Counted from the stretch's first letter, positions 2,547 to 46,623 are shown. The stretch is 64,000 nucleotides of DNA from Bryobacteraceae bacterium (GCA_036521975.1 DATDGT010000371.1:702-64701); one strand, 5' to 3'. Notes: generated by a model from the sequence alone, not told the origin. Numbers and translations are program-made.

Positions 2547-5291
2547 TCACGGGCCTTCAGTGATAAACACATCCGAACGTCGGTAATTCGATGCTCCACA
2601 GACGAGTTTATACCAGTAGCGGGTATTCGGACTCAAGCCGGTGACGGCCACGGAGCGGTCCGGATTTCCTCCACTATCGCTCGAATTGTACACCGGAGAG
2701 TTGTAGCCGCTGTTATTGGCGACGCTCAGCGTGCAAGTACCCGTGTCCGGTGCGGTGTAGTAATACATAGCGGTGCTGCCAGTGACCGACAGCGACCGCA
2801 CGCGGAAGTCCAAATACGGGTTCGGCGACCCACTGACCGCGCCCTGCGTGCTCCAATTCACCACGGGGATATCCGCGCCGGGATCAGTCCCGAGGTATCC
2901 TGTCCCCTGATACGTCGAAGACACCGCAAGATTTGTCGGATAGCTCTGGAAGACGGAAGACATCGACATGGGGAATTGGCAGCCGTTGCATAGGTTTATG
3001 GGCGGATTCGGCACGCCGGGGGCAGTGGCGAATTGGTACTGCCCGCAGTTCCCCGAATCGCCGTTCGGGATACATGGAGATTGGTTCGTGATGATGATGT
3101 CGCCGGAAAAATTCGATGTGGGCGCCTGGTAATAGAGCGCGTAAGGGTTGAAGCCGTTGCCGAAATAGCCGTTTCCACAAGACGCTTCCCACACGCCATT
3201 TCCCGAGTTAGTGATGCTGTTTGTCCATGAGATGAAAGAGGGGATACCTGTTCCGCCGCAATACCACGTCCCGCTTCCCATAGATCCCTCATTGACTGAG
3301 TTATTCAACAGCATTGTGTTGTGATCGAATGCCGTGTCAGAGTAGATACCTAGGGCGAACATTTGAGAGGAAAATGTGATTCCCGTGAGACCTGGGCCGG
3401 TGATTTGCGGCAAGCCGATGTTTGTAAAGAGGTTGTTTTTAACCTGCAATCCTCGATCCGTCCAACTATAGTTGCTCCCCACGCTGCCCTCGATGAAGCC
3501 TGTGCTGGTTGAATCGCAGCGATTATTCGTGAACCTCGCATAACTCTCCACTTCGTCTGGCACGTAATACTGGCCCAGTGGGGGGTCATTATCCGCCTGA
3601 TTGAGGAGGGTGCATTGTCCGCCCTGGCCAAGCATCGTGGGCTGCCAGCTATTTTGCATCCAGTTCCCATCGACGATCGGGCCGAAACAGTTTTTGCACT
3701 CCCATTGAGTCTTGTCAATGGAACAGCCAACAGTACAGTAGAGAGTAATCGCACTGGCAGCCGCCGCGTAGGTATAGAAACTGTAGCTCATGGTCTCACT
3801 CGATAGCGCGGCGGCAGATGCGGTTAACGTGGTTCCGTTGACGACTTGCGCTACGGTGGCTCCTACCCCCGAAAATGGCGTTCCCGCTATGAACATTCCC
3901 ACCTGCACACCTGTGGTGTCGTTACACGTCAACGTTGTATTGTTCGCCGTCGACGTGCATACCAAATTCGTCGAGGCTGCCGCCCCGCAAGTCGTACAGT
4001 AGGGAACGTTGGGCGTGCCTGCGCCTTGATCTGTCCAGGTGCCGCTTTCGCAGAGGTACCAATGGCTGTTCGTAGAATCGATGTACGACTCACCCCCGTT
4101 CGAGTCGTACATGCAAGTCGAAGGGTAGAACGTGTTCGTGGGAAGCGCTGTTCCGCTTGTGACGCGCCACGACCACGGTCGATAGTAGTAATTGCCGAGA
4201 TATTGCGCTCCGGTGGCTTTGATTCCGATGATGCCGGGAGTCTGGCCACCGGTCAATGTACCGGATTGACTTGTCTCGAATTCATTGTTGCGAAGGTAGA
4301 TCGGCCCGCGCACAGTCGGGCTACTGTAGGCGTGACCCTCTAGAGAAGTGTGAAACGCCATCAATGTGGAGTTGGTTATCTCCAAATAACCGGAGTTGGC
4401 GGTAACCGCGTTGTAGATTCTGCTGTTGGCATAATGCTCCAAATAGTGATGAATATAATCCCGGTCGAAGACAATGTGATGAACCAGGTCAGATACCTGA
4501 TGCTCAATCGCGCCAGGAGAGCCTGCGGGTTGGTAATATAGCGCGACGATATAATATGGCTCGTTTCCGGGTGTCGTGTTCGAGGCGATCTCGACGCACT
4601 CGAAGCGATGGTAGCTGGCCCCAACGGAGTTCTCGACAATTGCGGGCGGCGAACTGTAAGTTTGAGAAATAAGCTTAGCCATCCCCGGATAGACACCAGT
4701 GCCGGTCGTCGTGTTTACCGGGCCCGCACGAGTGCCGGGAGGGAACTCGTAGCACTGGTTGGAGCGGTGGACTATCCAGTGCGCACTACCGAAGTAGAGC
4801 GTGACCATCTGGGTACAGGTTTGCGATCCGGTCGAGAGCGTGCATAGCGGGGAGGGGGGCGTTGGGGCGCTGGAAAGCGTCAGGGTGTAGGGGCCTGAGC
4901 CACTGACCGAACTGACGGTGACGCCTGAGCCGACGCCGGGGCCGCTCACCGGCATACCAGCCGTGATGGTAACGCCTGAGACGGGATCGTAGTAATGAGA
5001 GCACGAGAGATTCGCGCTCCCCTGGGTTTCCTTGCAGGCCAGGTAAATCTGGCCATTGTTAGGAGAGGGAAGCCCGATAGTCGTGGTAAAGCTCTGGCCG
5101 GCCTGCCATTCGAAGATGTAGGTGTCGTTCAGGACGGGCCACGTAGGAACAATGGATGGCAGCGCGGCTTCTGCCGTGCCGGGATCGGGGTAGTCGCAAC
5201 CGCTCGGGCAAACCGAATGGATAACCACTGCCTGCGATGGAACACTCCAGCATACTAAGGCGGCGAACAGGACGGAGATCTTGGTCATCAT
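2547..5291 (-). CDS. large secreted protein, probable right-handed beta-helix with a C-terminal FN3-like domain
   Basis: 914-aa ORF. The signal peptide is MMTKISVLFAALVCWSVPSQA. It has N/G/T-rich repeats (NNLFTNIG, NNSVNEGS, WTNSITNSGNG) and a C-terminal ...NTRYWYKLVCG. Confidence 0.6.
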   Translation of the reverse strand: MMTKISVLFAALVCWSVPSQAVVIHSVCPSGCDYPDPGTAEAALPSIVPTWPVLNDTYIFEWQAGQSFTTTIGLPSPNNGQIYLACKETQGSANLSCSHYYDPVSGVTITAGMPVSGPGVGSGVTVSSVSGSGPYTLTLSSAPTPPSPLCTLSTGSQTCTQMVTLYFGSAHWIVHRSNQCYEFPPGTRAGPVNTTTGTGVYPGMAKLISQTYSSPPAIVENSVGASYHRFECVEIASNTTPGNEPYYIVALYYQPAGSPGAIEHQVSDLVHHIVFDRDYIHHYLEHYANSRIYNAVTANSGYLEITNSTLMAFHTSLEGHAYSSPTVRGPIYLRNNEFETSQSGTLTGGQTPGIIGIKATGAQYLGNYYYRPWSWRVTSGTALPTNTFYPSTCMYDSNGGESYIDSTNSHWYLCESGTWTDQGAGTPNVPYCTTCGAAASTNLVCTSTANNTTLTCNDTTGVQVGMFIAGTPFSGVGATVAQVVNGTTLTASAAALSSETMSYSFYTYAAAASAITLYCTVGCSIDKTQWECKNCFGPIVDGNWMQNSWQPTMLGQGGQCTLLNQADNDPPLGQYYVPDEVESYARFTNNRCDSTSTGFIEGSVGSNYSWTDRGLQVKNNLFTNIGLPQITGPGLTGITFSSQMFALGIYSDTAFDHNTMLLNNSVNEGSMGSGTWYCGGTGIPSFISWTNSITNSGNGVWEASCGNGYFGNGFNPYALYYQAPTSNFSGDIIITNQSPCIPNGDSGNCGQYQFATAPGVPNPPINLCNGCQFPMSMSSVFQSYPTNLAVSSTYQGTGYLGTDPGADIPVVNWSTQGAVSGSPNPYLDFRVRSLSVTGSTAMYYYTAPDTGTCTLSVANNSGYNSPVYNSSDSGGNPDRSVAVTGLSPNTRYWYKLVCGASNYRRSDVFITEGP

Positions 5292-34034: not shown

Positions 34035-35606
34035 CTACGCGAGTGCAACTCGCGCGTTCGCCCGGAGCGCGATCTTTTGCATCTCGCGGCCCGCTAACTG
34101 GATTGTCACCGTCTGCGGCTGCTCGCTGATGCCGGTCAATGCCCTGGGTACGCCGGCGTCATCGGTGACCAGCCTTGCCGTCCCGGAGCCGATACGGCCG
34201 AGCACTTTACCCCCAAGGCGAAGCTCCGCGCCGTTTCGATCGTATTTCATTTCCGCCGTCCGGCCCGCATCGGTTCGTATGCTGAAGAGCGCTGATTGCG
34301 CGGCGGGATGGCCCGGCCGCACATTCCATTCGAGCGAATCGCCTTCTTCCCGCACGCCGGCCAAGCGCCACGTGTAATCGAGCATCACGAGCGCCGCCGG
34401 CGAATAGTTGCCCGCGCCCTGCTTCGTGAATTCCCCGCTTAGCGGATCTAATTGTTGCCGGAAACTCATATCGGCTTGGATCGCATCGCACCAGCGGTCC
34501 ATCATGACGCTGAATTCCGCGGGACGCCCGTAGTATTCCAACCAGCGGCCGGCTCGTAGCGCCGTCAAGGCTTGCGAAGCTCCTCCCCAGGAATTCCGTG
34601 GAATGGGACGCACAAACATCGGATCGTCCAGCGCCACGGAAGGCAGCGGCCAGGGCGCCCAAAATGCCTTCGGGTTATGAAGCTGACGAGCCCAGAGGTT
34701 GTCGAAAAGCGCCTGGTCCGGAATGTGCTCGCCGCAGACCCGGCTGAGGATGTCGCAACGGATCTTGACAAAGCGATTCCGAGCATCCAAGTCATAGAAC
34801 GCCGCATCCTCTTGGACGTATAGACGCGAAAGAATCAGATTGCGAATCTCTTCGGCTCGCGCAGTCCAGCGATCCGCTTCCGCAGTTTTTCCCAGCGCCT
34901 TGGCCATCGCGGATAGCGCGACACGCCCCCCGTAGACGGTCGCGGAAAGGTCGGGACAAAGCCGGGGCAGCGATGGTATTGGCGCATGTTTTTTCGCATC
35001 CTTATCCGGACACTGCGGAGGGATGCCGTCCCATCGCGGGCTGTTGTCATGTCCCGTGTCGTAGGTGCAGAATCCTTCGACGAGTCCAGTTCCGCGAGTA
35101 TTTCGGTAGCGCACGAGCCAATCGTCCCAGGCGGAACACGCCCGATACGCCATGCGCAGAAACTCGTCGTCGCCGGTCGACCGGCTAAGCTCCCAGGCTG
35201 TCGCGGCGATAGGCACGACCATCTGAATCTGTCCAAAGCCGGTCTCGGATACTTTGTTGTTAGCGGGGAACTGTCCGTCGGACCGTTGGAGCGCGAAGAA
35301 AATCAGGTGGCTGTTTCGAGCAGCGTCAGGCCCGAATTTCCGGTACACCAGCGCCTCATGCGGTCCGCACTCCATCCAGATTCCCGCGTAGTTCGCGCCT
35401 TCGATCAGCACGGGTTTACTGTAGCGGGGCAAAACTTGAACATTTGCGGCAAGAACTGCGAGCGCGCGATCGTAAGCGGTCTGCCAGCGGGAGTTCGCTG
35501 TGCGGAATTCCGGCCGTTGCGGATCGGGCTCAGGAGAAGCGGAAACGAAGCGATCTCCCAGTCCTGCCGCTGCTGCCTGCCATATAAACTCGCGCCGACG
35601 CATCAT
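34035..35606 (-). CDS. six-hairpin glycoside hydrolase (GH63/MGH1-like), Tat-exported
   Basis: 523-aa ORF with MMRRREFIWQAAAAGLG. YDTGHDNSPRWD resembles the GH63/MGH1 acid-residue motif. Confidence 0.5.
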   Translation of the reverse strand: MMRRREFIWQAAAAGLGDRFVSASPEPDPQRPEFRTANSRWQTAYDRALAVLAANVQVLPRYSKPVLIEGANYAGIWMECGPHEALVYRKFGPDAARNSHLIFFALQRSDGQFPANNKVSETGFGQIQMVVPIAATAWELSRSTGDDEFLRMAYRACSAWDDWLVRYRNTRGTGLVEGFCTYDTGHDNSPRWDGIPPQCPDKDAKKHAPIPSLPRLCPDLSATVYGGRVALSAMAKALGKTAEADRWTARAEEIRNLILSRLYVQEDAAFYDLDARNRFVKIRCDILSRVCGEHIPDQALFDNLWARQLHNPKAFWAPWPLPSVALDDPMFVRPIPRNSWGGASQALTALRAGRWLEYYGRPAEFSVMMDRWCDAIQADMSFRQQLDPLSGEFTKQGAGNYSPAALVMLDYTWRLAGVREEGDSLEWNVRPGHPAAQSALFSIRTDAGRTAEMKYDRNGAELRLGGKVLGRIGSGTARLVTDDAGVPRALTGISEQPQTVTIQLAGREMQKIALRANARVALA

Positions 35607-35782
35607 TCAATGAGTAGCAGATCGCGCACTCCTCGCCGAGCGGACCGGACGGTCCGGATATCCCAAATTCCGATCTGAGTTGATGGCCGTAGATAAGCGC
35701 TCGCGGACCTGCGCGGCTGCATTGGTTAGCCGATCGCGTCCGTTGGGTTCAAGAGCGTGACTTGCCGGGGTGCTGGAGCATG

Positions 35783-36115
35783 CTATGCAGCCCGGCTCTT
35801 GCGGCGTTTTGAACCCGTCACCTGAACGGCGAGTCGCATTCCGAACGCCTTCAATACGGCCGCCAGACTGTCCAGCGATGGATTGCCGGACTTGGAGAGC
35901 ATGCGATAAAGGCTTTCCCGATTCAGTCTTCCATCTCGGGACAAAGCTCTAATTCCGCCGTGCGCGTCGGCAACATCGCGAAGAGCGAGCAGGAAGACCC
36001 GCGTGTCTTCGTCGTCGAGACAGGCGCTGAGATAAGAGGCTGCCTCGTCCGGGTTTCGTAGCGATTCCAGGAGATTCTCCCGATAGGAATCAGTTGTGAC
36101 CGCGGCTTTTCGCAT
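35783..36115 (-). CDS. addiction-module antidote protein, HigA family (TIGR02684-like)
   Basis: 110-aa ORF. NPDEAASYLSACLDDEDTRVFLLALRDVADAHGG...LNRESLYRMLSKSGNPSLDSLAAVLKAFGMRLAV closely matches the recalled family consensus. Confidence 0.75.
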   Translation of the reverse strand: MRKAAVTTDSYRENLLESLRNPDEAASYLSACLDDEDTRVFLLALRDVADAHGGIRALSRDGRLNRESLYRMLSKSGNPSLDSLAAVLKAFGMRLAVQVTGSKRRKSRAA

Positions 36116-36171
36116 TCAGGTACTCCTTCCAGTATCTCTTTTGGACCCGATGCGTCGTTTCTACGGCTCGC

Positions 36172-37410
36172 CTACGCATAATTCGACCCCGGAGCCATCT
36201 CCCTCTGGCTTCGCTCCGCGGTGATGCGCTCAAGATACCCGCTTTGGCGAAACGCGTCCATGGGATCGGACGGAAGGCTTCTGGAAAGCGCCCATTCGCG
36301 AATGACCGGCCGCACATCGGTGGAGAACGCTTCCTTGAGACAGGTCTCCGCGTCTATCAACGCACACTTTGCCTGACAAACGGCGAGTCTCTCGTGATCA
36401 ACCAGAGCCGCCTTCGCGAACAGCTCTAGCGCGGACATCACTGTCTGGATCATGGCCTCTATCTTGCCTTTCAGGTTGTGGCTCTGATCGATCATATAGG
36501 CGATATCGGCCCGCTTGCCGGACTCCCATTCGAAAAAGAGAATCTCGTGAAAAATGCGAAAGATCTGATAGGGATCGATCGAACCAAGCGTCAGGTCGTC
36601 ATCGGCGTAGCGCCGGTCGTTCAAATGGAACCCTCCCAGCATGTCGAGATCCAGCAGCCATGCCACAATCTGTTCGATGTTCTGACCTTGATAGTGGTGG
36701 CCGGTGTCGACGAGCACCTTCGCGCTTGGTCCCGCGGCCTGCGCGTGCCACAGCGCCATGCCCCAATCGGCGATGTCGGTGTGATAGAAGGCGGGCTCGA
36801 ACGGTTTGTATTCCACCAGCAGGCGCTGAGCATATCCAAAAACATCTGGCCCAAGAACGTTCTTCGCCAGGCGCGCGTGAGCAGCCTGGAGCGCTTCGGC
36901 GAACCATTGCCTCCGCCGGCGAATATTCTGCGTGCCGGGATAGTTCGACCCGTCGGCGAACCACAGGGAAACATCGCGGCTGCCCAGCCGTCTGGCGATT
37001 TCGATACTGTCCAGGATGTGATCGAGTGCCTGTTTGCGCACGCCCAAGTCGGGATTACCGAGCGAGCCATATTTGTAGATTTGGTCCTGGAACGTATTCG
37101 GATTGATGGAACCTGGCCGCAACCCGTGCTGCGCGGCCAACGCCTGCACCTTTGCTACATCGCCGGTTCCACTGGGCATGTCCCACAGTACGTGTAGCGC
37201 AAGAGTGGGGCACACTCCGGTCCAGCGGTGGACCTCGCCGGCATCGCTGAATTCTTCTTCAATGGTGGAGGCCGCGGCCGGTTGGAGAAATTTACCAAAA
37301 CGTGTTCCGGTATTGGCGAAACCCCAAGACGGCAGTTCGATGCGAAACGCGTCTAGCGCTTTATAGATGGAATCGGCCTGGGCGGTTGTCAAACGGCTAT
37401 TGAAACACAT
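36172..37410 (-). CDS. rhaI: L-rhamnose isomerase (Pseudomonas stutzeri/Rhizobium type, TIM barrel)
   Basis: 412-aa ORF. PSWGFANTGTRFGKF, YKYGSL, EYKPFEPAFY, DTGHH, GGFHLNDRRYADDDL and MIDQSHN parallel P. stutzeri L-RhI. Confidence 0.88.
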   Translation of the reverse strand: MCFNSRLTTAQADSIYKALDAFRIELPSWGFANTGTRFGKFLQPAAASTIEEEFSDAGEVHRWTGVCPTLALHVLWDMPSGTGDVAKVQALAAQHGLRPGSINPNTFQDQIYKYGSLGNPDLGVRKQALDHILDSIEIARRLGSRDVSLWFADGSNYPGTQNIRRRRQWFAEALQAAHARLAKNVLGPDVFGYAQRLLVEYKPFEPAFYHTDIADWGMALWHAQAAGPSAKVLVDTGHHYQGQNIEQIVAWLLDLDMLGGFHLNDRRYADDDLTLGSIDPYQIFRIFHEILFFEWESGKRADIAYMIDQSHNLKGKIEAMIQTVMSALELFAKAALVDHERLAVCQAKCALIDAETCLKEAFSTDVRPVIREWALSRSLPSDPMDAFRQSGYLERITAERSQREMAPGSNYA

Positions 37411-37454
37411 CGTGGTGTGATGGCGGGTAAACGCGACAGTAAGCGATCGCTAAA

Positions 37455-37637
37455 CTACAAAACTTCTCGTCCCTTGGGAACCATTTCAGGCGTGAGAAAA
37501 GTCTTTGGCAGCTCGCCCTCGCCGGCCAGGGTAAACTTGCTAAAGCGCTTATACCACATCCCTTCCGGCACGTCGGGTTCAGATTCCAGCCAGTGTTTCA
37601 GCTCGAGGAAGTCGGGAGAGGAGATTCGGTCGTTCAA
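37455..37637 (-). CDS. hypothetical small protein
   Basis: 60-aa ORF at the edge of the AT-richer cassette. I recognise no family. Confidence 0.3.
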   Translation of the reverse strand: MNDRISSPDFLELKHWLESEPDVPEGMWYKRFSKFTLAGEGELPKTFLTPEMVPKGREVL

Positions 37638-37737
37638 CCCCTGCGCAGCGTCCGCGGTTTACGTGGACCCAATGCCAGACAGGTCAAAAAGGGGCAAAGC
37701 AACTCGCGGGCACGCATTGGCACGCGAAGATGGGAGT

Positions 37738-38313
37738 TCAGAGCTGAAGCTTAAGTCTGTAGTAATCGGGCTGGCGAACGATGCGCTTGATGGGCGTGCC
37801 GGGAGCGTATTGTGTGATCATCCCGCTGATCTCGTCATACTCGCGGTTTTCACAACCCAGTACTATGGCGGTTATGGCGCCGTCGGGCAGCTTGACGTAG
37901 TTGCTGTCAAGTTTGGCGGGTCCGTTCGCGGTGCACGAGCCGATGATCCGAAACTCTCGTTCGTAACACCAGTCCGCAGACTTGGCCAAGATGAGGCGCA
38001 GCGGGTTCCCCTGCCAAATGCCCGCGGAGGTCCACTCGGGATATTCTTTGCTGTACCTCACGGGTCGAGCCTTCGAAATGAGCGGGTTACCTTTGCCAAG
38101 CTCTATACAGATTCCGCGATGTCGGTCGGCGTAATGTGACCACATGAGGGTATTTTCGGGAAAGGGCGTCAGGCAGTAAATTCGCCGCTTGACGACCTCG
38201 GCCTGCAGGAGGCGGCTTGCCGATTCTGGTGCGCCTTTTAAAAACGGCTTGCAGTCCCACGGGTCATTAACGTCGAGCGGGTCCGAAAAGAAAATGCGCC
38301 GGTCTCGCAACAT
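37738..38313 (-). CDS. DUF2971-family protein (paralogue 1; the conserved N-terminus lies upstream of the first canonical start)
   Basis: FFSDPLDVNDPWDCKP, RRIYCLTPFPENTLMWSHYADRHRGICIE, AKSADWCYEREFR and LPDGAITAIVLGC. The frame stays open to 38427 and encodes FEKFYHYQPF. Confidence 0.65.
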   Translation of the reverse strand: MLRDRRIFFSDPLDVNDPWDCKPFLKGAPESASRLLQAEVVKRRIYCLTPFPENTLMWSHYADRHRGICIELGKGNPLISKARPVRYSKEYPEWTSAGIWQGNPLRLILAKSADWCYEREFRIIGSCTANGPAKLDSNYVKLPDGAITAIVLGCENREYDEISGMITQYAPGTPIKRIVRQPDYYRLKLQL

Positions 38314-38417
38314 GTCCCGAAGATAGTCCTTATACTTCCCAGAAAATGGCTGGTAGTGATAAAACTTCTCAAAGTCACATTGCTTCGCGGTGGGATCGAT
38401 GAGGGGCTCTGGATGCG

Positions 38418-38816
38418 TTATGGGTTGTCATCCTCCATTAGTTCTGCGATTTGTTTTTGCAGTTTCTTGTGCTCGGAGCTCTCGTTCGCGGCCCTATCGT
38501 CGCCGGTCACGACTGTGACCAGGGGGAATTTGGTCGTTCCAGAGAGAGCGTCGTATACGGTTTCAAAGGCCAGTTCCGAGTGTCCGAAGTAGACGAGGGA
38601 ATAGCACTTTCCCTGTGGGAAGTTGTAATGGTGGCGAAAGAACAGAGTTTCAAAATCGGTGCCGTTGTCTTTTCGCCATGCGGTTTCAAATTCGCGGGCT
38701 TCGTCAGCGCACTTCGCTTCCAACTGGAAACGCTCTGACGCGGACATTTTGCCACTCGTCAGTTTGTCACACGACGCGAGCGGGATAATTAACACAATGG
38801 CCAGTACGGGCCGCAT
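38418..38816 (-). CDS. lipoprotein, unknown function
   Basis: The start is set at the ATG at 38816. MRPVLAIVLIIPLASC contains the lipobox LASC. Confidence 0.55.
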   Translation of the reverse strand: MRPVLAIVLIIPLASCDKLTSGKMSASERFQLEAKCADEAREFETAWRKDNGTDFETLFFRHHYNFPQGKCYSLVYFGHSELAFETVYDALSGTTKFPLVTVVTGDDRAANESSEHKKLQKQIAELMEDDNP

Positions 38817-39251
38817 CACATTGACTTGTAGCTGGACATTTAACGCGTGGGTTTGATGCAAAAGAATTGCCACATGGCGGAATGCAGACGGCGCTCTTCA
38901 ACTTGCCGTTTTAGGACACATTATCATCCACATGTTGGCGAGCGTTACGGGTTTAAAATCGCAGTTCCTGAATGCCGCGGGGCTGCCGGCCGATCCAATC
39001 GCGATCGGGTTGGCCCTAGCTGTCGGCGTCATATTCGGAAATCAGCGCGTATTTGCATGTGTGCGTCGCGATCCGGTCGGCTTAGGTCGTTGAGGATGGC
39101 TGACGAAGCCTGATATGGCGCTGACCGAGCAGGAAGCAGCGGATTGGAAGAGTGGCGAGCTCGCTACTCGCGAAGCTGAAGAAGGTGGTGCTCGATTGGC
39201 AGAAGCAGCAGACGACCATGCCAATGGTACGGACCACGATTCAGGACGTTC

Positions 39252-39305
39252 TGGAGGACGGCTTGCCGAGGGCATAGTTTTGGAGGACGGCTTGCCGAGG
39301 GCATA
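39252..39305. repeat. 25-bp perfect direct repeat x2 (4-bp spacer)
   Basis: TGGAGGACGGCTTGCCGAGGGCATA occurs at 39252-39276 and 39281-39305, in the 670-bp gap between the protease and lipoprotein genes. Confidence 0.9.
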
Positions 39306-39484
39306 TACGAAGGAATTCTGGGAGGAAAGTGCAGCGCCGTCCGCCAGCGCTTCTATGAGATGTAGACCGGCGGGTACCGTCTCCGACGTTCATGATGCCG
39401 CATCGTAAGCTGAAACCTTAGGATTCGGCACCGCTCCGTTTTCGGGGACGAAGAACTTGCTCAGCGGTTGCAAGGATCAAAAAA

Positions 39485-40615
39485 TCACGGCAGATACAGC
39501 CCCAGCGAGATTACAGCACCATTCCCGTCCGCGAGCAAGACGAGGCGACGATTCTGATAATAGAAGAGGCGCGTGCCATTTGGGTTCTTCACCTCTCTGT
39601 AGTTGCGACCCCAGGCGGCCTGCGCCTCTCGCAGCGTGAGGCGTACGGGATATACGAAAATCCTACGAAGACGGCTCGTCTCGTTCGAGAAGTCTAATTC
39701 AAACTCCCTCACGGCACCCGTAGGATCGGGAAAGGCGTAGATCAACCCGTCAACTGCCTTGCCATCCAGAGCATCTCGTTGGCGAAGAGGCTCACCCAGT
39801 ACACGCTTTGCGTCTACAAGGCCCCATACCCCCAACTGCTTCTCAAGAAATGCCATGCTACCTTTACGCATTTCATCAGGTATCACCAGTGCCGTTGATG
39901 TTAACTGCGCTTTTCCAGGTGTCGTTTCTGGCGGCTGTTCCGGTTCGTAGATCGAAGCAAGTGATTGCGTTTGGGTGATTCCAAGCATCCCCCGAGCGTA
40001 GTCAATAGGGATCGCGAAATTGAGGTTCTGGCCGCCCTCCACGCTTAGAACAGCGATTCCGATCACCTCTCCGCTCCCATTGAAGACCGGGCCCCCGGAA
40101 CTTCCTGGGCTAATGGGTGCACTCATTTGGAAAAGCCGGTATCCATCCATTTCACGAATGCCGCTGACTAGTCCCTGCGAAAGCGTATTCTGCAAACCTA
40201 AAGGGCTGCCGATTGAATAAACCGTCTGTCCGATCTCGACAGAGTTTGATCTGCCCAACCGCGCCGGGTGCAAATCGACAGCCGGGATCTTTAGGAACGC
40301 GATGTCCTTCCGTTTGTCTACCGCCAACACTTCAACCAAGTCATAAGCATCGCCGTTCGCCAACTTGACAGTCGCCTGCTTCGCGTGAGACACGACGTGG
40401 TAGTTGGTAAGAAGCTTTCCGTCTGGACTCACCAGCAGCCCGCTTCCCGTTTTCACCGGTTTGCCATCGGATCCTATCGCCTCAATCAGGACGACCGACG
40501 GAGATGCCTGTTTGTACAGCGTTCCGGCGTCGAGAACTGATTGCGCCTCAAGTCCGAATGCAGCCGAGAATAGAAATGTGAAACAAAGTGAGGCACTGGC
40601 AGTGGTCCGTGTCAT
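39485..40615 (-). CDS. secreted trypsin-like (S1/HtrA-like) serine protease with an unassigned ~150-aa C-terminal domain and no recognisable PDZ
   Basis: The start is at ATG 40615, with a signal peptide. The catalytic triad context is TNYHVV, KDIAFLK and GSSGGPVF. Confidence 0.75.
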   Translation of the reverse strand: MTRTTASASLCFTFLFSAAFGLEAQSVLDAGTLYKQASPSVVLIEAIGSDGKPVKTGSGLLVSPDGKLLTNYHVVSHAKQATVKLANGDAYDLVEVLAVDKRKDIAFLKIPAVDLHPARLGRSNSVEIGQTVYSIGSPLGLQNTLSQGLVSGIREMDGYRLFQMSAPISPGSSGGPVFNGSGEVIGIAVLSVEGGQNLNFAIPIDYARGMLGITQTQSLASIYEPEQPPETTPGKAQLTSTALVIPDEMRKGSMAFLEKQLGVWGLVDAKRVLGEPLRQRDALDGKAVDGLIYAFPDPTGAVREFELDFSNETSRLRRIFVYPVRLTLREAQAAWGRNYREVKNPNGTRLFYYQNRRLVLLADGNGAVISLGLYLP

Positions 40616-40711
40616 CCTTCTTCTCCGATGATGAGCGAGTCTAGCGCGAATGCCTCGGCCCGTCAATACTACCCAAAGCGGAGAGGTCCTACGTCCCTCG
40701 GGCGGCAAGGG

Positions 40712-41500
40712 CTAAGAGTAGTCAGCGATGGTGAGTGTGTAGAGGTTACCAGTACGGACTGCTTGTTTGATTGGCAGGCTCGGAGCGCATTTTCTAACGA
40801 CTTCGGCGATGGTGCGCTGATCGGCCTCGCACCCTATGATGACCGATTTCAGTGCTCCATCCGGCAAGCGAAAGAAATCGCCAATAGGGTAAAGAAAGTC
40901 GGGGGCTGGGGTCTCGATGCTTACAAGCCGATACTCCTGCTCGTACAGCCAGTCAGACGACTTAGTAAGGATCAACTCCATGACTCTTCCCGGATTTTCG
41001 TGGATGTCACACGGCGCCCACCGAGGGTATTCCTTCTGATAGATGACCTCACAGGCGCGCCGGAATAGAGGGTTCGACGTGCTAAATTCCAGACAGATAC
41101 CTCGATGGTTTTCGGCATAGTGTGACCATATGAGAGTGGAGTCTGGTTTTGGGGTAAGGCAATAAATTCGTCTTCTGGCGAGCATAGCCTCAATCGGTGG
41201 TGAGGCATTAATCATAAAGGAGACGCGAAACTCTGGATCGGAGCGCATCTTGGCCGCCCAAAGATGTTTGTCTGGGTGCTCTTGACGCCACGCGATTTCA
41301 CGCTCCAAAATTTCGGGGTCGTCGAGCGCATGCGGGTCGAACACCGGCTTACAGTCCCAGGGATCGTTCAGGTTCTTCGGGTCCGAGCAGTGAATGATGT
41401 TCTTCTGAAGAATGGTGGCGAGATACTCAAGATTGAATTTCTCGTAGTGGTATAGGAGGGCGATGTCGTTCTGGAATGCGGTTCGGTGAAGTTGTTCCAT
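40712..41500 (-). CDS. DUF2971-family protein (paralogue 2, full length)
   Basis: 262-aa ORF with LLYHYEKF, HCSDPKNLNDPWDCKP, RRIYCLTPKPDSTLIWSHYAENHRGICLE, TKSSDWLYEQEYR and LPDGALKSVIIGC. Confidence 0.7.
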   Translation of the reverse strand: MEQLHRTAFQNDIALLYHYEKFNLEYLATILQKNIIHCSDPKNLNDPWDCKPVFDPHALDDPEILEREIAWRQEHPDKHLWAAKMRSDPEFRVSFMINASPPIEAMLARRRIYCLTPKPDSTLIWSHYAENHRGICLEFSTSNPLFRRACEVIYQKEYPRWAPCDIHENPGRVMELILTKSSDWLYEQEYRLVSIETPAPDFLYPIGDFFRLPDGALKSVIIGCEADQRTIAEVVRKCAPSLPIKQAVRTGNLYTLTIADYS

Positions 41501-41690
41501 TCGATGGAACTTCGTTATAAAACCAATTGTAGTCGATTTTGTATTAACAGCCGCTTCATCAATTCAATGGTCCGAGGTGACGGCTTGCGCTTTCCCGTCC
41601 CCCATCGCCGGATCGTGATCCGGGCGCTCCTCCTGCCGAAGCCAAAGCGGACGGCGAACTGGAATGCCGCGCGGCGGCGGCCTCCGGAGG

Positions 41691-41933
41691 TTAGGCATTT
41701 CTGAACTGTCTATGGAAAACTATACGTTCGATGTGATCAGAGAGGAGACGGATCTCCTGTGGGTCCGAAGCCGCCTTAAGGCGCTTTAGCAAATTCAGCA
41801 AAGATTTGTCCGAGGTGTCGAATTGGCTCTTGCCGGCCGTTCCACGCCGGCCAGGTACGGGCTTAGAACCTTTCGACGCTCCTTTCGCTTTCGCGCGCGT
41901 GGAACTGGTCGAATTAGCGAACTTCGAGGGCAC
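41691..41933 (-). CDS. hypothetical small basic protein
   Basis: 80-aa ORF with a Lys/Ser-rich N-terminus. I recognise no family. Confidence 0.3.
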   Translation of the reverse strand: MPSKFANSTSSTRAKAKGASKGSKPVPGRRGTAGKSQFDTSDKSLLNLLKRLKAASDPQEIRLLSDHIERIVFHRQFRNA

Positions 41934-41980
41934 GACCTAATTATAAACGTGGCGCCGGGACTGTATGATAGACGGTTCCA

Positions 41981-43507
41981 ATGTCTACACTGCTGTTGCG
42001 AGCAACCGGGATCACCAAGACCTTTGCCGGAGTGCGAGCGCTCCACGCAGCGAGTTTCGACCTTGAGCCTTGGGAAGTCCACGCGCTGGTGGGCGAGAAC
42101 GGAGCCGGAAAGTCCACGCTCATTCGAATCATCACCGGCGCGGAGACGCCCGATGCAGGATTGCTCCAAGTGGAAGGCCGCGTGGTTACGGACCATCGGC
42201 CCAAGGTTTCGAAAAGCCTGGGAATCGCGGCGATTTACCAGCAGCCTGCTCTGTTCCCGGACCTGAGCGTGGCTGAGAATATCGCCCTGGCGCTCGAAAC
42301 GGGCGGCCTCGTCGCCCGACATGAGGGGACGTGGCGCAAGGTGGATTGGCGCGCGCGGAACCAGCGCGCCAGAGAACTGTTGGAGCAGGTCGGGGCCGCC
42401 ATCGATCCGGACCGCCCGGCTTCCTCGCTCAGCTTGCCGGAGCAGCAGTTGGTGGAAATCTCCAAGGCGATCGGGGCGAAGGCTCGAATCCTGATCATGG
42501 ATGAGCCCACGGCTTCGCTTACGGAATCCGAAGTGGAACGCTTGTTTCGGCTGATCGCTGCGTTTCGCGCGGAAGGCCGCGGAATCGTATATATCTCGCA
42601 CAGGTTGGAGGAGATCTTCTCGATCGCGGACCGCATCACGGTCCTGCGTGACGGCGAAACGGTGGGGACGCAGTACAAAAACCAAATCACGAAGGAAGAA
42701 GTCATCCGGCAGATGGCCGGGCGGGAACTATCGGCCGCGTTCCCGAAACCGCGGGTTCCTGTCGGAGAAATCGCGCTGGAGGTACGGAGGCTATCGAATA
42801 AGAGAGCGGGTCTTAGCCACATTTCCTTGCATGTCAGGTGCGGAGAGATTTTGGGTTTGGCCGGTTTGCTGGGCGCCGGGCGGACCGAGTTGGCGGAGAC
42901 GATCTTCGGCCTCACGCCTGCCGATTCAGGAGAGGTTCTGGTGCGCGGCAAACCGGTGCGGATCGCATCGCCTTCGCAGGCGATCGGGTACGGCATCGGC
43001 TACGTGCCTGAAGATCGCCGCCGGCACGGAGTGGTGATCGAGATGCCTATTGCCTCGAATGTGAGCCTCGCCAGTTTGCGGGCAGTCGCGCCCGCCGGCT
43101 TGATCGATCGCAAGGCTGAGCGCGAACTCGCGCTTCGTTATATGGGTCAGTTGCGCATTAGGGCTGAATCGGTCCAGTCGAGCGCCGGAACGCTTTCCGG
43201 CGGCAATCAGCAAAAGGTCGCGCTGGCGCGATGGTTGGCTACCGGCCCCGCGGTGCTGATCCTGAACGAACCGGCGCAGGGAGTGGATGTAGCCTCTAAG
43301 CAGGAGATTCACAAGCTGATGGTGGATTTGGCCGGACGCGGAATGGCGATCGTCATGATTTCGTCGGAGCTTCCGGAAATTATCGCGATGAGTGACCGCA
43401 TCGTGGTGATGCGGGCGGGCCGCATCCGCGGAGAGCTTTCGAACCACGTTTCCAATCAGGAGACAACGCCCGAGAAGATCCTTTCGCTGGCGCTGGGACA
43501 CGAATAG
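41981..43507 (+). CDS. sugar ABC transporter ATP-binding protein (duplicated ABC domains; rhamnose transporter by context)
   Basis: 508-aa ORF with GENGAGKST, LSLPEQQLVEI and a second LSGGNQQKVALA. It ends with TAG at 43505-43507. Confidence 0.85.
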   Translation: MSTLLLRATGITKTFAGVRALHAASFDLEPWEVHALVGENGAGKSTLIRIITGAETPDAGLLQVEGRVVTDHRPKVSKSLGIAAIYQQPALFPDLSVAENIALALETGGLVARHEGTWRKVDWRARNQRARELLEQVGAAIDPDRPASSLSLPEQQLVEISKAIGAKARILIMDEPTASLTESEVERLFRLIAAFRAEGRGIVYISHRLEEIFSIADRITVLRDGETVGTQYKNQITKEEVIRQMAGRELSAAFPKPRVPVGEIALEVRRLSNKRAGLSHISLHVRCGEILGLAGLLGAGRTELAETIFGLTPADSGEVLVRGKPVRIASPSQAIGYGIGYVPEDRRRHGVVIEMPIASNVSLASLRAVAPAGLIDRKAERELALRYMGQLRIRAESVQSSAGTLSGGNQQKVALARWLATGPAVLILNEPAQGVDVASKQEIHKLMVDLAGRGMAIVMISSELPEIIAMSDRIVVMRAGRIRGELSNHVSNQETTPEKILSLALGHE

Positions 43508-44470: not shown

Positions 44471-44519
44471 GTACTCCGTTTCCAGAGAGCAATGTGGGGC
44501 AGCGCTCTGCGCTGCGGCG

Positions 44520-44574
44520 GGCCCTCGGCCCGCCCCGTGCAGGCGGCCTGAGAGGCCGCCGCAGGCCGAGGGCC
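44520..44574 (+). other. nested GC-rich intercistronic stem-loop
   Basis: GGCCCTCGGCC (44520-30) pairs with GGCCGAGGGCC (44564-74). Inside it, GGCGGCC-TGAGA-GGCCGCC (44542-60) forms a second stem. Confidence 0.7.
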
Positions 44575-44589
44575 TGCGCCACCGTACAT

Positions 44590-46623
44590 ATGAAACCGCG
44601 TACTGAGCGCTGGTTCCCCAATAGCGAGTGGATCTTGCCGCTCGCGCTGCTGGCCGAAATCGTGGTGTTCTCGACACTAGCGGACAACTTCTTCACTCTG
44701 CGAAATTTCTTCGAGATCGTTCGCACCAGCGTCGAAGTCGGATTGCTGGCGCTCGCCTTGACCCCGGTAATCGTATCCGGCGGGATCGATCTCTCGGTGG
44801 GCTCGATGATGGGCCTTGCGGCGGTGGTCTTCGGAGCCGCCTGGGAAAATTGGCATGCGCCGCTGGTTGTTGCCGCCGGTCTGGCTCTTCTTGTGGGCTG
44901 CGCGGGCGGCGCGCTGAATGCGCTCCTGATTGCGCGCTTCGGCATTCCGGCGCTGATCGTGACCCTGGGCTCTTTCTCTTTGTTTCGCGGAATCGCGGAA
45001 GGCATCACGCATGGCGCGGTGAACTACAGCGGGTTTCCGCGGGGCTGGCTTTTTCTTGGCCAAGGCTACCTGGGCGGCGTGGTTCCGGCGCAAATCCCGA
45101 TATTTCTGACGGCGCTCGCCGGCTACGCTGTGCTCCTGCACCGCTCCTCAATTGGGCGGGCGCTCTACGCGATCGGATTTTCCGCAGGGAACACGCGTTA
45201 TGCGGGCATTCCCGTCGCGAAACGGATTGGCTTGGTATACCTGCTTTCCGGCGTGGCGGCGAGCCTCGCCGCCATTGTCTACGTCGCGCATCTGGGGCAG
45301 GCGAAATCGGATGCCGGAACCGGGTACGAACTGGATGCGATTACCGCTGTAGTTCTCGGGGGCGCCTCCGTATTCGGCGGACGCGGGACTATTGGCGGAA
45401 CGCTGCTCGGGGTCCTTTCACTAGCGGTGTTGCAGAATGGCGTGCACCTGGCGGCGTTGCCTTCCGAATTGACCGGTGTGCTGACTGGAACGCTTCTGGT
45501 GGCCTCCATAGGCATCGACCGCTTCCGCGTCCGCAATTCGGGAGCGTTGATTCAGAGCCGCGACGGGGCGCCCTCTCGGCCGCGTGCGGTCGCCGTTTTG
45601 TGCAGCGCGATTCTCGCTGGAGCGTTGATCATCGCGGGCACGAATACACGGCTGGTGCGCTCTATTAGATCCGCGGCGGATCTTCCAATTTCGAACGGCG
45701 CGCGGCGCCCTCCGGTGATCGCCGTGATGCCCAAGGCTAAAGGCGATCCGTATTTCATAAGCTGCCGCAAGGGCGCCGAGGAAGCCGCGCGCGAACTGGG
45801 AGTGGATCTGATTTGGGATGGTCCCACCAGCCTGGACGCGGCCAAGCAGAATGAGATCGTCGAGAGCTGGATTACCCGCCAGGTTGACGTAATCGCTGTG
45901 TCTGTTGAGAATCAGGCCGGCATCTCGACGGTTCTCCGCAAAGCGCGCGCGCACGGCATCCGCGTGCTGACCTGGGACGCTGACGCAGCGCCCGACGCGC
46001 GCGATTTCTTCGTCAACCAGGCCACCGCACAGGCCATCGGCGAGACGCTAGCGGACGAGGCCGCGCGCCTGCTAAACGGCGCCGGTGAATTCGCGATCGT
46101 CACGGGCGCGCTCAGCGCCGCCAATCAAAACGAATGGATCAAATTCATTCGCCGGCGTGTCGCACAGGAGCATCCACTTCTGAAACTAGATACCATTCAG
46201 CCGAGCGATGACGATCGCGACAAGGCTTTCTCCGAGACCCAGACCATCGTCAAAGTGTTTCCAGGAGTGAAGCTGGTGATGGCAATCTCGGCTCCGGCCG
46301 TTCCCGGAGCCGCCGAAGCGATTCGCCAGATGGATCTCCAAGCCGGAAGCAAGGCCGTAGACGTCATCGGGCTTTCGCTTCCGAACATCTCCAAACCCTA
46401 TATTCACTCGGGGCTGGTTCAAGAGATCGTTCTATGGAACACTACGGATCTCGGGTACTTGACGGTCTATGCCGGCTCGCTTCTGGCGGAAAACAAGATG
46501 GTCAACGGAGCCAAATCGATCCAAGCCGGAAGACTTGGGAACCTGGAGATTCGCGGCAGTGACATCATCCTGGGCACTCCCCTGATCATTAACAATTCCA
46601 ACGCGGACCAGTTCGATTTTTAA
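44590..46623 (+). CDS. ABC permease fused in frame to a periplasmic sugar-binding protein (no stop between the two)
   Basis: The start is at ATG 44590 (MKPRTERWF...). The permease runs to ~GIDRFRVRN. A signal/anchor-like RPRAVAVLCSAILAGALIIAG follows, then a type-I PBP domain (VIAVMPKAKGDPYF...DVIAVSVEN...). Confidence 0.65.
   Translation: MKPRTERWFPNSEWILPLALLAEIVVFSTLADNFFTLRNFFEIVRTSVEVGLLALALTPVIVSGGIDLSVGSMMGLAAVVFGAAWENWHAPLVVAAGLALLVGCAGGALNALLIARFGIPALIVTLGSFSLFRGIAEGITHGAVNYSGFPRGWLFLGQGYLGGVVPAQIPIFLTALAGYAVLLHRSSIGRALYAIGFSAGNTRYAGIPVAKRIGLVYLLSGVAASLAAIVYVAHLGQAKSDAGTGYELDAITAVVLGGASVFGGRGTIGGTLLGVLSLAVLQNGVHLAALPSELTGVLTGTLLVASIGIDRFRVRNSGALIQSRDGAPSRPRAVAVLCSAILAGALIIAGTNTRLVRSIRSAADLPISNGARRPPVIAVMPKAKGDPYFISCRKGAEEAARELGVDLIWDGPTSLDAAKQNEIVESWITRQVDVIAVSVENQAGISTVLRKARAHGIRVLTWDADAAPDARDFFVNQATAQAIGETLADEAARLLNGAGEFAIVTGALSAANQNEWIKFIRRRVAQEHPLLKLDTIQPSDDDRDKAFSETQTIVKVFPGVKLVMAISAPAVPGAAEAIRQMDLQAGSKAVDVIGLSLPNISKPYIHSGLVQEIVLWNTTDLGYLTVYAGSLLAENKMVNGAKSIQAGRLGNLEIRGSDIILGTPLIINNSNADQFDF

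Follow-up and report, generated by a model that had tools for sequence, protein, structure and literature searches.

The genome of a Bryobacteraceae bacterium (GCA_036521975.1 DATDGT010000371.1:702-64701) was analyzed over a stretch of 64,000 nucleotides, referred to here as the window. In it, between rhaI, coding for an L-rhamnose isomerase-like protein, and the ATPase gene of a rhamnose-type ATP-binding cassette (ABC) transporter, lies a 4.5-kb cassette coding for two DUF2971 proteins of different length, an exported HtrA-like serine protease and a small lipoprotein, with a short open reading frame (ORF) at either edge and the remains of a type I restriction gene (hsdR) between the lipoprotein and protease genes (Table 1). 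The six minus-strand ORFs that an original prediction had listed for this region are all present. We think it probable that the segment is a horizontally acquired mosaic mini-island, in which separately mobile accessory modules have come together in the divergent spacer between rhaI and the ABC gene, and that it is not a single system.

Table 1. Genes and other features of the cassette and its immediate flanks, in window coordinates
Feature	Coordinates	Strand	Size	Remarks
rhaI, L-rhamnose isomerase-like (flank)	36172..37410	-		AP_endonuc_2 TIM barrel; same orientation as the cassette genes
Inserted segment	37411..41964		~4.55 kb	Defined by the break in collinearity with L002, junction alignment and GC content
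rhaI-side edge ORF	37455..37637	-	60 aa	Gene status unsupported
Short DUF2971 paralogue	37738..38421	-	191 aa (ORF 37738-38313)	PF11185, PDC-S31; ancestral start gone; lacks a helical insert of ~48 residues
Small lipoprotein	38418..38816	-	132-aa precursor (ORF 38418-38873, 151 aa from GTG)	Lipobox LASC; rare family, no Pfam entry
hsdR relic	39100..39362	+	last ~85 codons	Type I restriction; three frames; tblastn in both directions
HtrA-like (S1C) serine protease	39485..40615	-	376 aa (ORF 39485-40708, 407 aa from TTG)	Trypsin_2; ORF reaches TTG 40708
Long DUF2971 protein	40712..41500	-	262 aa	Intact; PF11185, PDC-S31, all family-invariant residues
ABC-side edge ORF	41691..41933	-	80 aa	Gene status unsupported
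Sugar (rhamnose-type) ABC transporter ATPase (flank)	41981..43507	+		ABC_tran twice; divergent from rhaI

The two flanking genes are on opposite strands and are thus divergent, with the cassette upstream of both, and because all of the cassette genes are oriented as rhaI, read-through into rhaI is possible. Downstream of the ATPase gene are a permease gene and a second permease fused to a RhaS-type rhamnose-binding protein, which confirms the rhamnose-type identity of the transporter; the apparent fusion is a 709-aa ORF (44494-46623, plus strand) with the ABC sugar permease at residues ~45-345 and the rhamnose-binding protein at 409-709, and the closest relative is collinear across it.

A RhaI query scanned against 185,579 species genomes led to metagenome-assembled genomes (MAGs) of the Bryobacteraceae and other Acidobacteriota, with 577 relatives confirmed and the best 80 examined. 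The closest of these, a Bryobacteraceae MAG (L002) with RhaI 85% and ABC ATPase 78% identical, has the two genes in divergent orientation with starts ~21 bp apart. By tblastx it is collinear with the window from 52.7k to 41.99k and then passes straight to 37.40k and on to 36.15k, such that more than 10 kb of synteny is broken only at the cassette. The two genes are separated by 65 bp in another relative (L044), and in two more (L065 and L066) a 1.2-kb spacer holds only a sugar-type regulator. No cassette gene is found beside rhaI in any of the best 80 of the 577 rhaI loci, and the cassette is missing from L002 and from every other examined locus in which rhaI and the ABC gene are linked. This comparison of orthologous rhamnose loci, which had been put forward as a check on the original prediction, upholds its proposal of an insertion; the conserved operon that was said to have been split is instead a divergent spacer and not one transcription unit.

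Alignment of the junctions with L002 places the edges of the segment to within ~10 bp, and its composition sets it apart. The GC content of 37417-41950 is 0.546, compared with a mean of 0.594 (standard deviation 0.015) for 4.5-kb stretches across the window and 0.59-0.61 in the flanks; it is the lowest-GC stretch of this length in the window, with values as low in only 0.17% of sliding windows, and the AT-richness remarked on in the original prediction is therefore real. At third codon positions the GC content of the cassette genes is 0.58-0.68, versus 0.69-0.74 in flanking genes. The insert carries no integrase, transposase, tRNA or terminal repeats, and across 35500-42500 Rfam returns nothing at E<=0.1. 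The only candidate for a target-site duplication or terminal repeat, an imperfect TATCATA/TTCAATA likeness at both junctions, is not convincing. A promoter match of consensus quality is present at the ABC-side junction (41987-41960), but promoter- and terminator-like sites occur in the region at chance frequency only.

Three of the six cassette ORFs have Pfam families, with DUF2971 found twice and Trypsin_2 once. The two DUF2971 proteins are 37% identical (BLASTP, E 6e-53) and both exceed the gathering cut-off of PF11185 (22 bits), the short copy with 29.3 and the long copy with 32.0 bits, in agreement with their original description as paralogues; all 26 aligned relatives match the same family. 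Both copies also match PDC-S31, a single-gene phage defense candidate of PADLOC and hence an entity that already has a name, with E-values on four models of 7e-43, 5e-35, 2e-24 and 1e-9 for the long copy and 2e-32, 5e-25, 4e-20 and 8e-8 for the short copy. The long copy spans the model PDLC04990 end to end, with residues 12-259 aligned to positions 5-256 of 259. Neither protein has a signal peptide. In PHROGs, the DUF2971 proteins and the protease match unnamed families.

The original prediction took DUF2971 as a family with no assigned function, and this is out of date. Aristaios, a single-gene system on a Lactococcus plasmid that codes for a 316-aa DUF2971 protein, has been validated experimentally; it imposes an abortive-infection-like block of phage transcription and resembles ADP-ribosyltransferases (ARTs) structurally (PMC11381338, PMC13064643). 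A survey of ART families also places DUF2971 in the H-Y-E clade; it notes a similarity to both DarT and AbiGi, and describes a conserved tyrosine, an ExE motif and large inserts of helices between the strands (PMC12522546). In the 26-sequence alignment H18 (long-copy numbering) is nearly invariant and Y113, W125-S-H-Y128, E187, E189 and R191 do not vary, with all of them present in both window copies; in an AlphaFold2 model of the long copy (mean predicted local distance difference test score, pLDDT, 91.5), H18, Y113, E187 and E189 are each at a predicted strand. Following the survey (PMC12522546), these four residues would correspond to the ART motifs. No solved ART was recovered with the family profile against PDB sequences or with Foldseek searches of the model against PDB and BFVD, and none of the 26 members weakly matches an ART family in permissive Pfam scans; because the fold is not reproduced, the ART assignment draws on the literature together with motif conservation.

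We note that many DUF2971 calls on long contigs (P0161, P0164, P0278, P0281 and P0285, on contigs of 29-647 kb) have their first codon within the helical insert or beyond it and are without YHY and NDPWDCKP. Such short calls suggest that 5' truncation or inactivation of DUF2971 is frequent, which would not be surprising if the gene is toxic.

The short copy has lost its start. Its reading frame continues without a stop back to 38427 and includes the conserved FYHY strand, with no ATG, GTG or TTG before the first canonical start, ATG 38313, from which the predicted 191-aa product is without YHY; the original prediction had placed this motif within ORF 37738-38313, and it is actually upstream of it in the same frame. 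Full-length relatives begin MPLIDPTAKQ. In a related locus on the metagenome contig L104 the start reads ccATGATGcag, and at the same site the window has ccATAACGcat, with the ancestral start destroyed; the copy is therefore probably silenced, N-terminally truncated, or translated weakly from ATA. A Shine-Dalgarno-like GGAGGA (38431-38436, minus strand) is located in the last codons of the lipoprotein gene, 9 nt upstream of the ATA (38419-38421) that replaces the ancestral ATG, and weak non-canonical initiation may occur there. Downstream of ATG 38313 the ratio of non-synonymous to synonymous substitution rates (dN/dS) is ~0.07 over 31 codons; in the 36 codons upstream it is 0.92, a value that is not decisive, with two synonymous and eight non-synonymous changes in a naturally variable N-terminal tail.

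The L104 locus also provides an instance of the short copy and the lipoprotein gene together. The start (ATGATG) of a DUF2971 gene with 85% identity overlaps the stop codon of a lipoprotein gene with 81% identity, and the ATGA overlap suggests that the two are translationally coupled. The pair (274-1094) directly adjoins tRNA-Ser(TGA) and a ParE/RHH toxin-antitoxin pair, a setting typical of tRNA-adjacent islands. A further relative of the short copy (P0241, 76% identical) is likewise called at 191 aa and lies in a different context, with a 132-aa gene 109 bp upstream.

The two copies have different origins. The long copy is 84% identical to a gene elsewhere (P0122), and the short copy is 85% identical to that of L104 over the first 66 residues; since the copies are only 37% alike mutually and 84-85% alike to genes elsewhere, they were acquired separately and are neither a duplication nor a co-evolving pair. 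Homologues of the long copy (84%, 69% and 66% identity) each stand alone, in settings unrelated to one another: one is flanked by genes for a glucose/sorbosone-dehydrogenase-like protein and an aldehyde dehydrogenase, another adjoins a RelB/YafQ pair, and the third is in an element with an integrase and a type IV secretion system coupling protein; there is no protease, lipoprotein or second DUF2971 gene near them in these three loci. More distant members likewise stand alone, on a conjugative Burkholderia plasmid (beside a recombinase) and on E. coli phage-plasmids (beside a GNAT/DUF1778 pair). None of ~12 DUF2971 loci with usable flanks contains a protease gene, and a second DUF2971 copy is found in none of the surveyed loci.

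The protease matches Trypsin_2 (E 2e-32), has a signal peptide and gives no PDZ match, and its triad (H73/D104/S173) is invariant in 32 homologues, as anticipated in the original prediction of a secreted S1 protease. There are more than 5000 homologues, and those that are 60-73% identical are ~380 aa long and retain the C-terminal domain; the start is therefore most likely the internal ATG 40615. NCBIfam models of HtrA, DegP and DegS match the protease domain only, with degP_htrA_DO scoring 134.8 bits against a cut-off of 416, and PADLOC likewise gives domain-level matches only, to protease-containing models. In Foldseek searches with an AlphaFold2 model (pLDDT 85) the catalytic domain is similar to HtrA1, DegS and MucD (E ~1e-17, target-normalized template-modeling score ~0.8); its identity to HtrA1 is 38%. 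A confident alpha/beta C-terminal domain is predicted at residues ~245-376 (~130 aa). The C-terminal 155 aa match no Pfam family and the Foldseek matches are dominated by the catalytic domain; a suggested likeness to the S1C-NTF2 bi-domain of RsgI9 was not accepted (root-mean-square deviation ~18 Å).

In none of four independent protease contexts is there a DUF2971 or lipoprotein gene. One of these is beside a DUF433/DUF5615 pair and one is uninformative; in the other two the protease is part of an integrative element, one with a resolvase and a VapE-like primase (L086, 8001-9206, from the same MAG as L002) and one with an integrase, a resolvase, an AAA_25 gene and a pentapeptide-TIR gene (L088, 8001-9143). 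In both, the element ends with the protease orthologue, after which core genes resume, and this suggests that such elements regularly carry the protease at one end. Another protease locus (L084), with genes for 190-aa and 773-aa products, was suspected to be syntenic with the window, and tblastx showed no synteny.

For the lipoprotein gene, ATG 38816 is the most likely start. The cysteine of the LASC lipobox, correctly recognized in the original prediction, is invariant in 14 family members together with two further cysteines, and dN/dS relative to the L104 orthologue is 0.11; the selection and the invariant cysteines identify it as a real gene. Members of this family are rare: only 19 of 1.84 billion representative clusters match at E<1e-3, and none was found in viral contigs. 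An 82% identical lipoprotein (L111) is without DUF2971 downstream, and small uncharacterized genes and a TIR_2 gene are nearby (1091-1573 and 4057-4461). The pairing of lipoprotein and DUF2971 is thus recurrent and not obligate, and is the only mildly novel element of the cassette; the lipoprotein family itself may be a resident of defense islands.

The ~600-bp gap between the lipoprotein and protease ORFs (38874-39484) is occupied by the hsdR relic. The frame-repaired peptide matches a 'type I restriction endonuclease subunit R' (tblastn, E 2e-10, 41% identity) and has no match in Pfam, and in the reverse search HsdR residues 962-1021 map to 39100-39274 in two frames. The relic represents residues ~962-1046 of a 1054-aa HsdR, with the frame not intact, and tblastn with HsdR finds no other fragments in the window. 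It contains a 29-bp tandem duplication (39248-39305, plus strand), in which GTTCTGGAGGACGGCTTGCCGAGGGCATA is present twice, perfect but for one position; the duplication repeats the 'LEDGLPRA' codons and shifts the frame. This frameshifted 3' fragment indicates that a type I restriction gene was once in this DNA and has since decayed.

The 80-aa edge ORF has no match in Pfam, NCBIfam, PHROG or PADLOC and no homologue among the fetched loci, except in an identical short contig of a Logan assembly (L001); the 60-aa edge ORF has no family match and no homologue among related loci. Beyond rhaI, 56 bp downstream, is an orphan HigA-like 'addiction module antidote' gene (35783-36115, minus strand; PF21716/TIGR02684, above cut-off) without a partner toxin. 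A HigB-like toxin remnant between it and rhaI was considered and found no support. The synteny with L002 also stops immediately after the rhaI stop codon, giving a second breakpoint on the other side of rhaI.

In the reading that we consider probable, of a mosaic of separately acquired modules, the long DUF2971 gene is intact and is most likely the only fully functional defense gene of the cassette. Acting alone, its product would be an infection-triggered H-Y-ExE ADP-ribosyltransferase related to DarT, as published predictions for the family suggest, with H18, Y113, E187 and E189 as the candidate catalytic residues; on infection it would use NAD+ to ADP-ribosylate a nucleic acid or an essential protein, leading to abortive infection. 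The short DUF2971 gene, from a different lineage, would have travelled with the small lipoprotein gene. The HtrA-like protease would be independent cargo that acts outside the cytoplasm, with no demonstrable link to DUF2971.

Several described systems are reminiscent of parts of the cassette. As expected of the single-gene PDC-S31, which both copies match, close homologues of the long copy are solitary in variable or mobile contexts, and the short lineage is sometimes paired with a lipoprotein gene; the window differs in having two diverged copies 3.1 kb apart, one of them without the helical insert and the start codon, and PDC-S31 is itself a computational candidate without a mechanism. The resemblance to Aristaios (PF11185, single-gene, mobile DNA) is that of a shared domain, with phylum and size differing, and a tblastn search against plasmids has no Lactococcus record among the best 30 of 335 matches. 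Residues that would correspond to those of DarT, the single-stranded DNA ADP-ribosyltransferase toxin of DarTG, are conserved in the cassette DUF2971 as H18, Y113 and E187xE189, but there is no macrodomain (DarG-like) antitoxin, the Pfam matches of the cassette being DUF2971 and trypsin only. The protease shares its catalytic domain and signal peptide with the S1C proteases HtrA, DegP and DegS, but an alpha/beta domain replaces PDZ, and its gene is not of the housekeeping kind but an accessory one that is found with mobile elements. As in defense islands with decaying restriction-modification genes, a low-GC insert between core genes holds defense candidates and a restriction-modification relic, with the orphan HigA-like gene beyond rhaI; in contrast, the cassette is only 4.5 kb, has no integrase or transposase, and occupies the promoter region between divergent sugar-catabolism genes instead of a tRNA site or a known hotspot. 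Llp and Cor are superinfection-exclusion lipoproteins of phages, and the Lactococcus study that describes Aristaios also reports Fliodhais, consisting of a lipoprotein and a 255-aa partner. With these the cassette shares a small lipoprotein gene adjoining, and possibly co-translated with, a defense-type gene, a likeness of layout in which no sequence relationship is expected; it differs in that the cassette lipoprotein also occurs without DUF2971.

A number of points weigh against the reading as a mosaic of independent modules. PDC-S31 has no more than candidate status, and what Aristaios has in common with the cassette proteins is the Pfam domain alone, such that an anti-phage role of the acidobacterial DUF2971 proteins is put forward here by analogy. 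The neighborhood sample is small (four protease contexts and ~12 DUF2971 loci), and the cassette genes are co-oriented with short gaps, so that they may be co-transcribed and hence have some functional coupling. The route of arrival is unexplained by any integrase, transposase or terminal repeat in the segment. The short form of DUF2971 may also be a maintained functional variant, as the P0241 protein is 191 aa too at 76% identity.

The original prediction saw in the four main genes a novel architecture. In this reading the DUF2971 pair, the exported protease and the lipoprotein would form one new system, for example a protease-activated effector, as it had proposed; an envelope-sensing defense would be another form of it. 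The co-orientation, close spacing and uniformly low GC content of the genes are consistent with this, as are the recurrence of the protease family in mobile or defense-type neighborhoods and its domain-level match to protease-containing PADLOC models. The expected co-localization of DUF2971 and protease did not materialize, however: the four protease contexts lack DUF2971 and lipoprotein genes, the ~12 DUF2971 loci lack a protease gene, and no surveyed locus has a second DUF2971 gene. The paralogues are from different lineages and one has lost its start, the supposed operon is broken up by the hsdR relic, which is on the other strand, and the protease and lipoprotein are exported while the DUF2971 proteins have no signal peptide. 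The four-gene system is thus largely refuted by the neighborhood survey and we regard it as very improbable, with the separate origins of the copies and the match to PDC-S31 also speaking against it. Both outcomes that the original prediction had named as refuting it were observed, in the match to an entity already named and in the lack of conserved co-localization of DUF2971 with the protease. What does hold from the original prediction is the character of the DNA as accessory, mobile and defense-flavored, given its absence from relatives, its deviant composition and its defense-candidate genes.

Two narrower explanations fare somewhat better. The lipoprotein and the insert-less DUF2971 could be a previously undescribed two-gene variant of the PDC-S31/Aristaios type, with the window copy recently inactivated; the exported, disulfide-bonded lipoprotein would serve as an envelope sensor, superinfection-exclusion factor or modulator, and the coupled DUF2971 as a cytoplasmic ADP-ribosyltransferase-like effector. 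In its favor, L104 keeps the adjacency and the stop/start overlap in a different context, the gene upstream of DUF2971 in P0241 has the length of the lipoprotein gene (132 aa), the lipoprotein is under purifying selection, and Fliodhais is a precedent in Lactococcus for a lipoprotein with a partner. The lipoprotein of L111 without DUF2971 downstream tells against it, as do full-length relatives of the short lineage (41-51% identity) that have no lipoprotein neighbor, and there are only two to three instances, P0241 being one in which the 132-aa neighbor is a candidate lipoprotein by length; we consider this variant unlikely, if the least so of the alternatives. More doubtful still is that the segment is mostly decaying debris of a larger island, kept as neutral DNA or through read-through transcribing rhaI. 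This would accommodate the frameshifts and duplication of the hsdR relic, the lost start of the short DUF2971, the two unsupported edge ORFs, the lack of any remaining mobility genes, and the commonness of N-terminally truncated DUF2971 calls on long contigs. Against it, three genes (long DUF2971, protease and lipoprotein) are of full length and their products keep every family-invariant residue, and the dN/dS values of the lipoprotein and of the short copy downstream of its ATG are low.

The mosaic of separately mobile modules remains the reading that we prefer, and the cassette offers two small leads. The first is a rare lipoprotein family that recurs beside defense-type genes and is sometimes start/stop-coupled to DUF2971; should the two-gene variant be real, it would tie what happens at the envelope, for example when a phage adsorbs or injects, to an abortive response inside the cell. 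The second is the exported protease, in which an HtrA-like catalytic domain is joined to a new C-terminal domain and which is carried by integrative elements of Bryobacteraceae. Neither alters current understanding unless a function is demonstrated. The locus is also a clean example of an accessory insert that, without a recognizable mobility gene, has entered a ~21-bp spacer between divergent sugar-catabolism genes, and it extends the catalog of DUF2971/PDC-S31 genes to the Acidobacteriota. It illustrates that a striking layout, in which paralogues bracket genes for exported proteins, can come from the accretion of unrelated modules.

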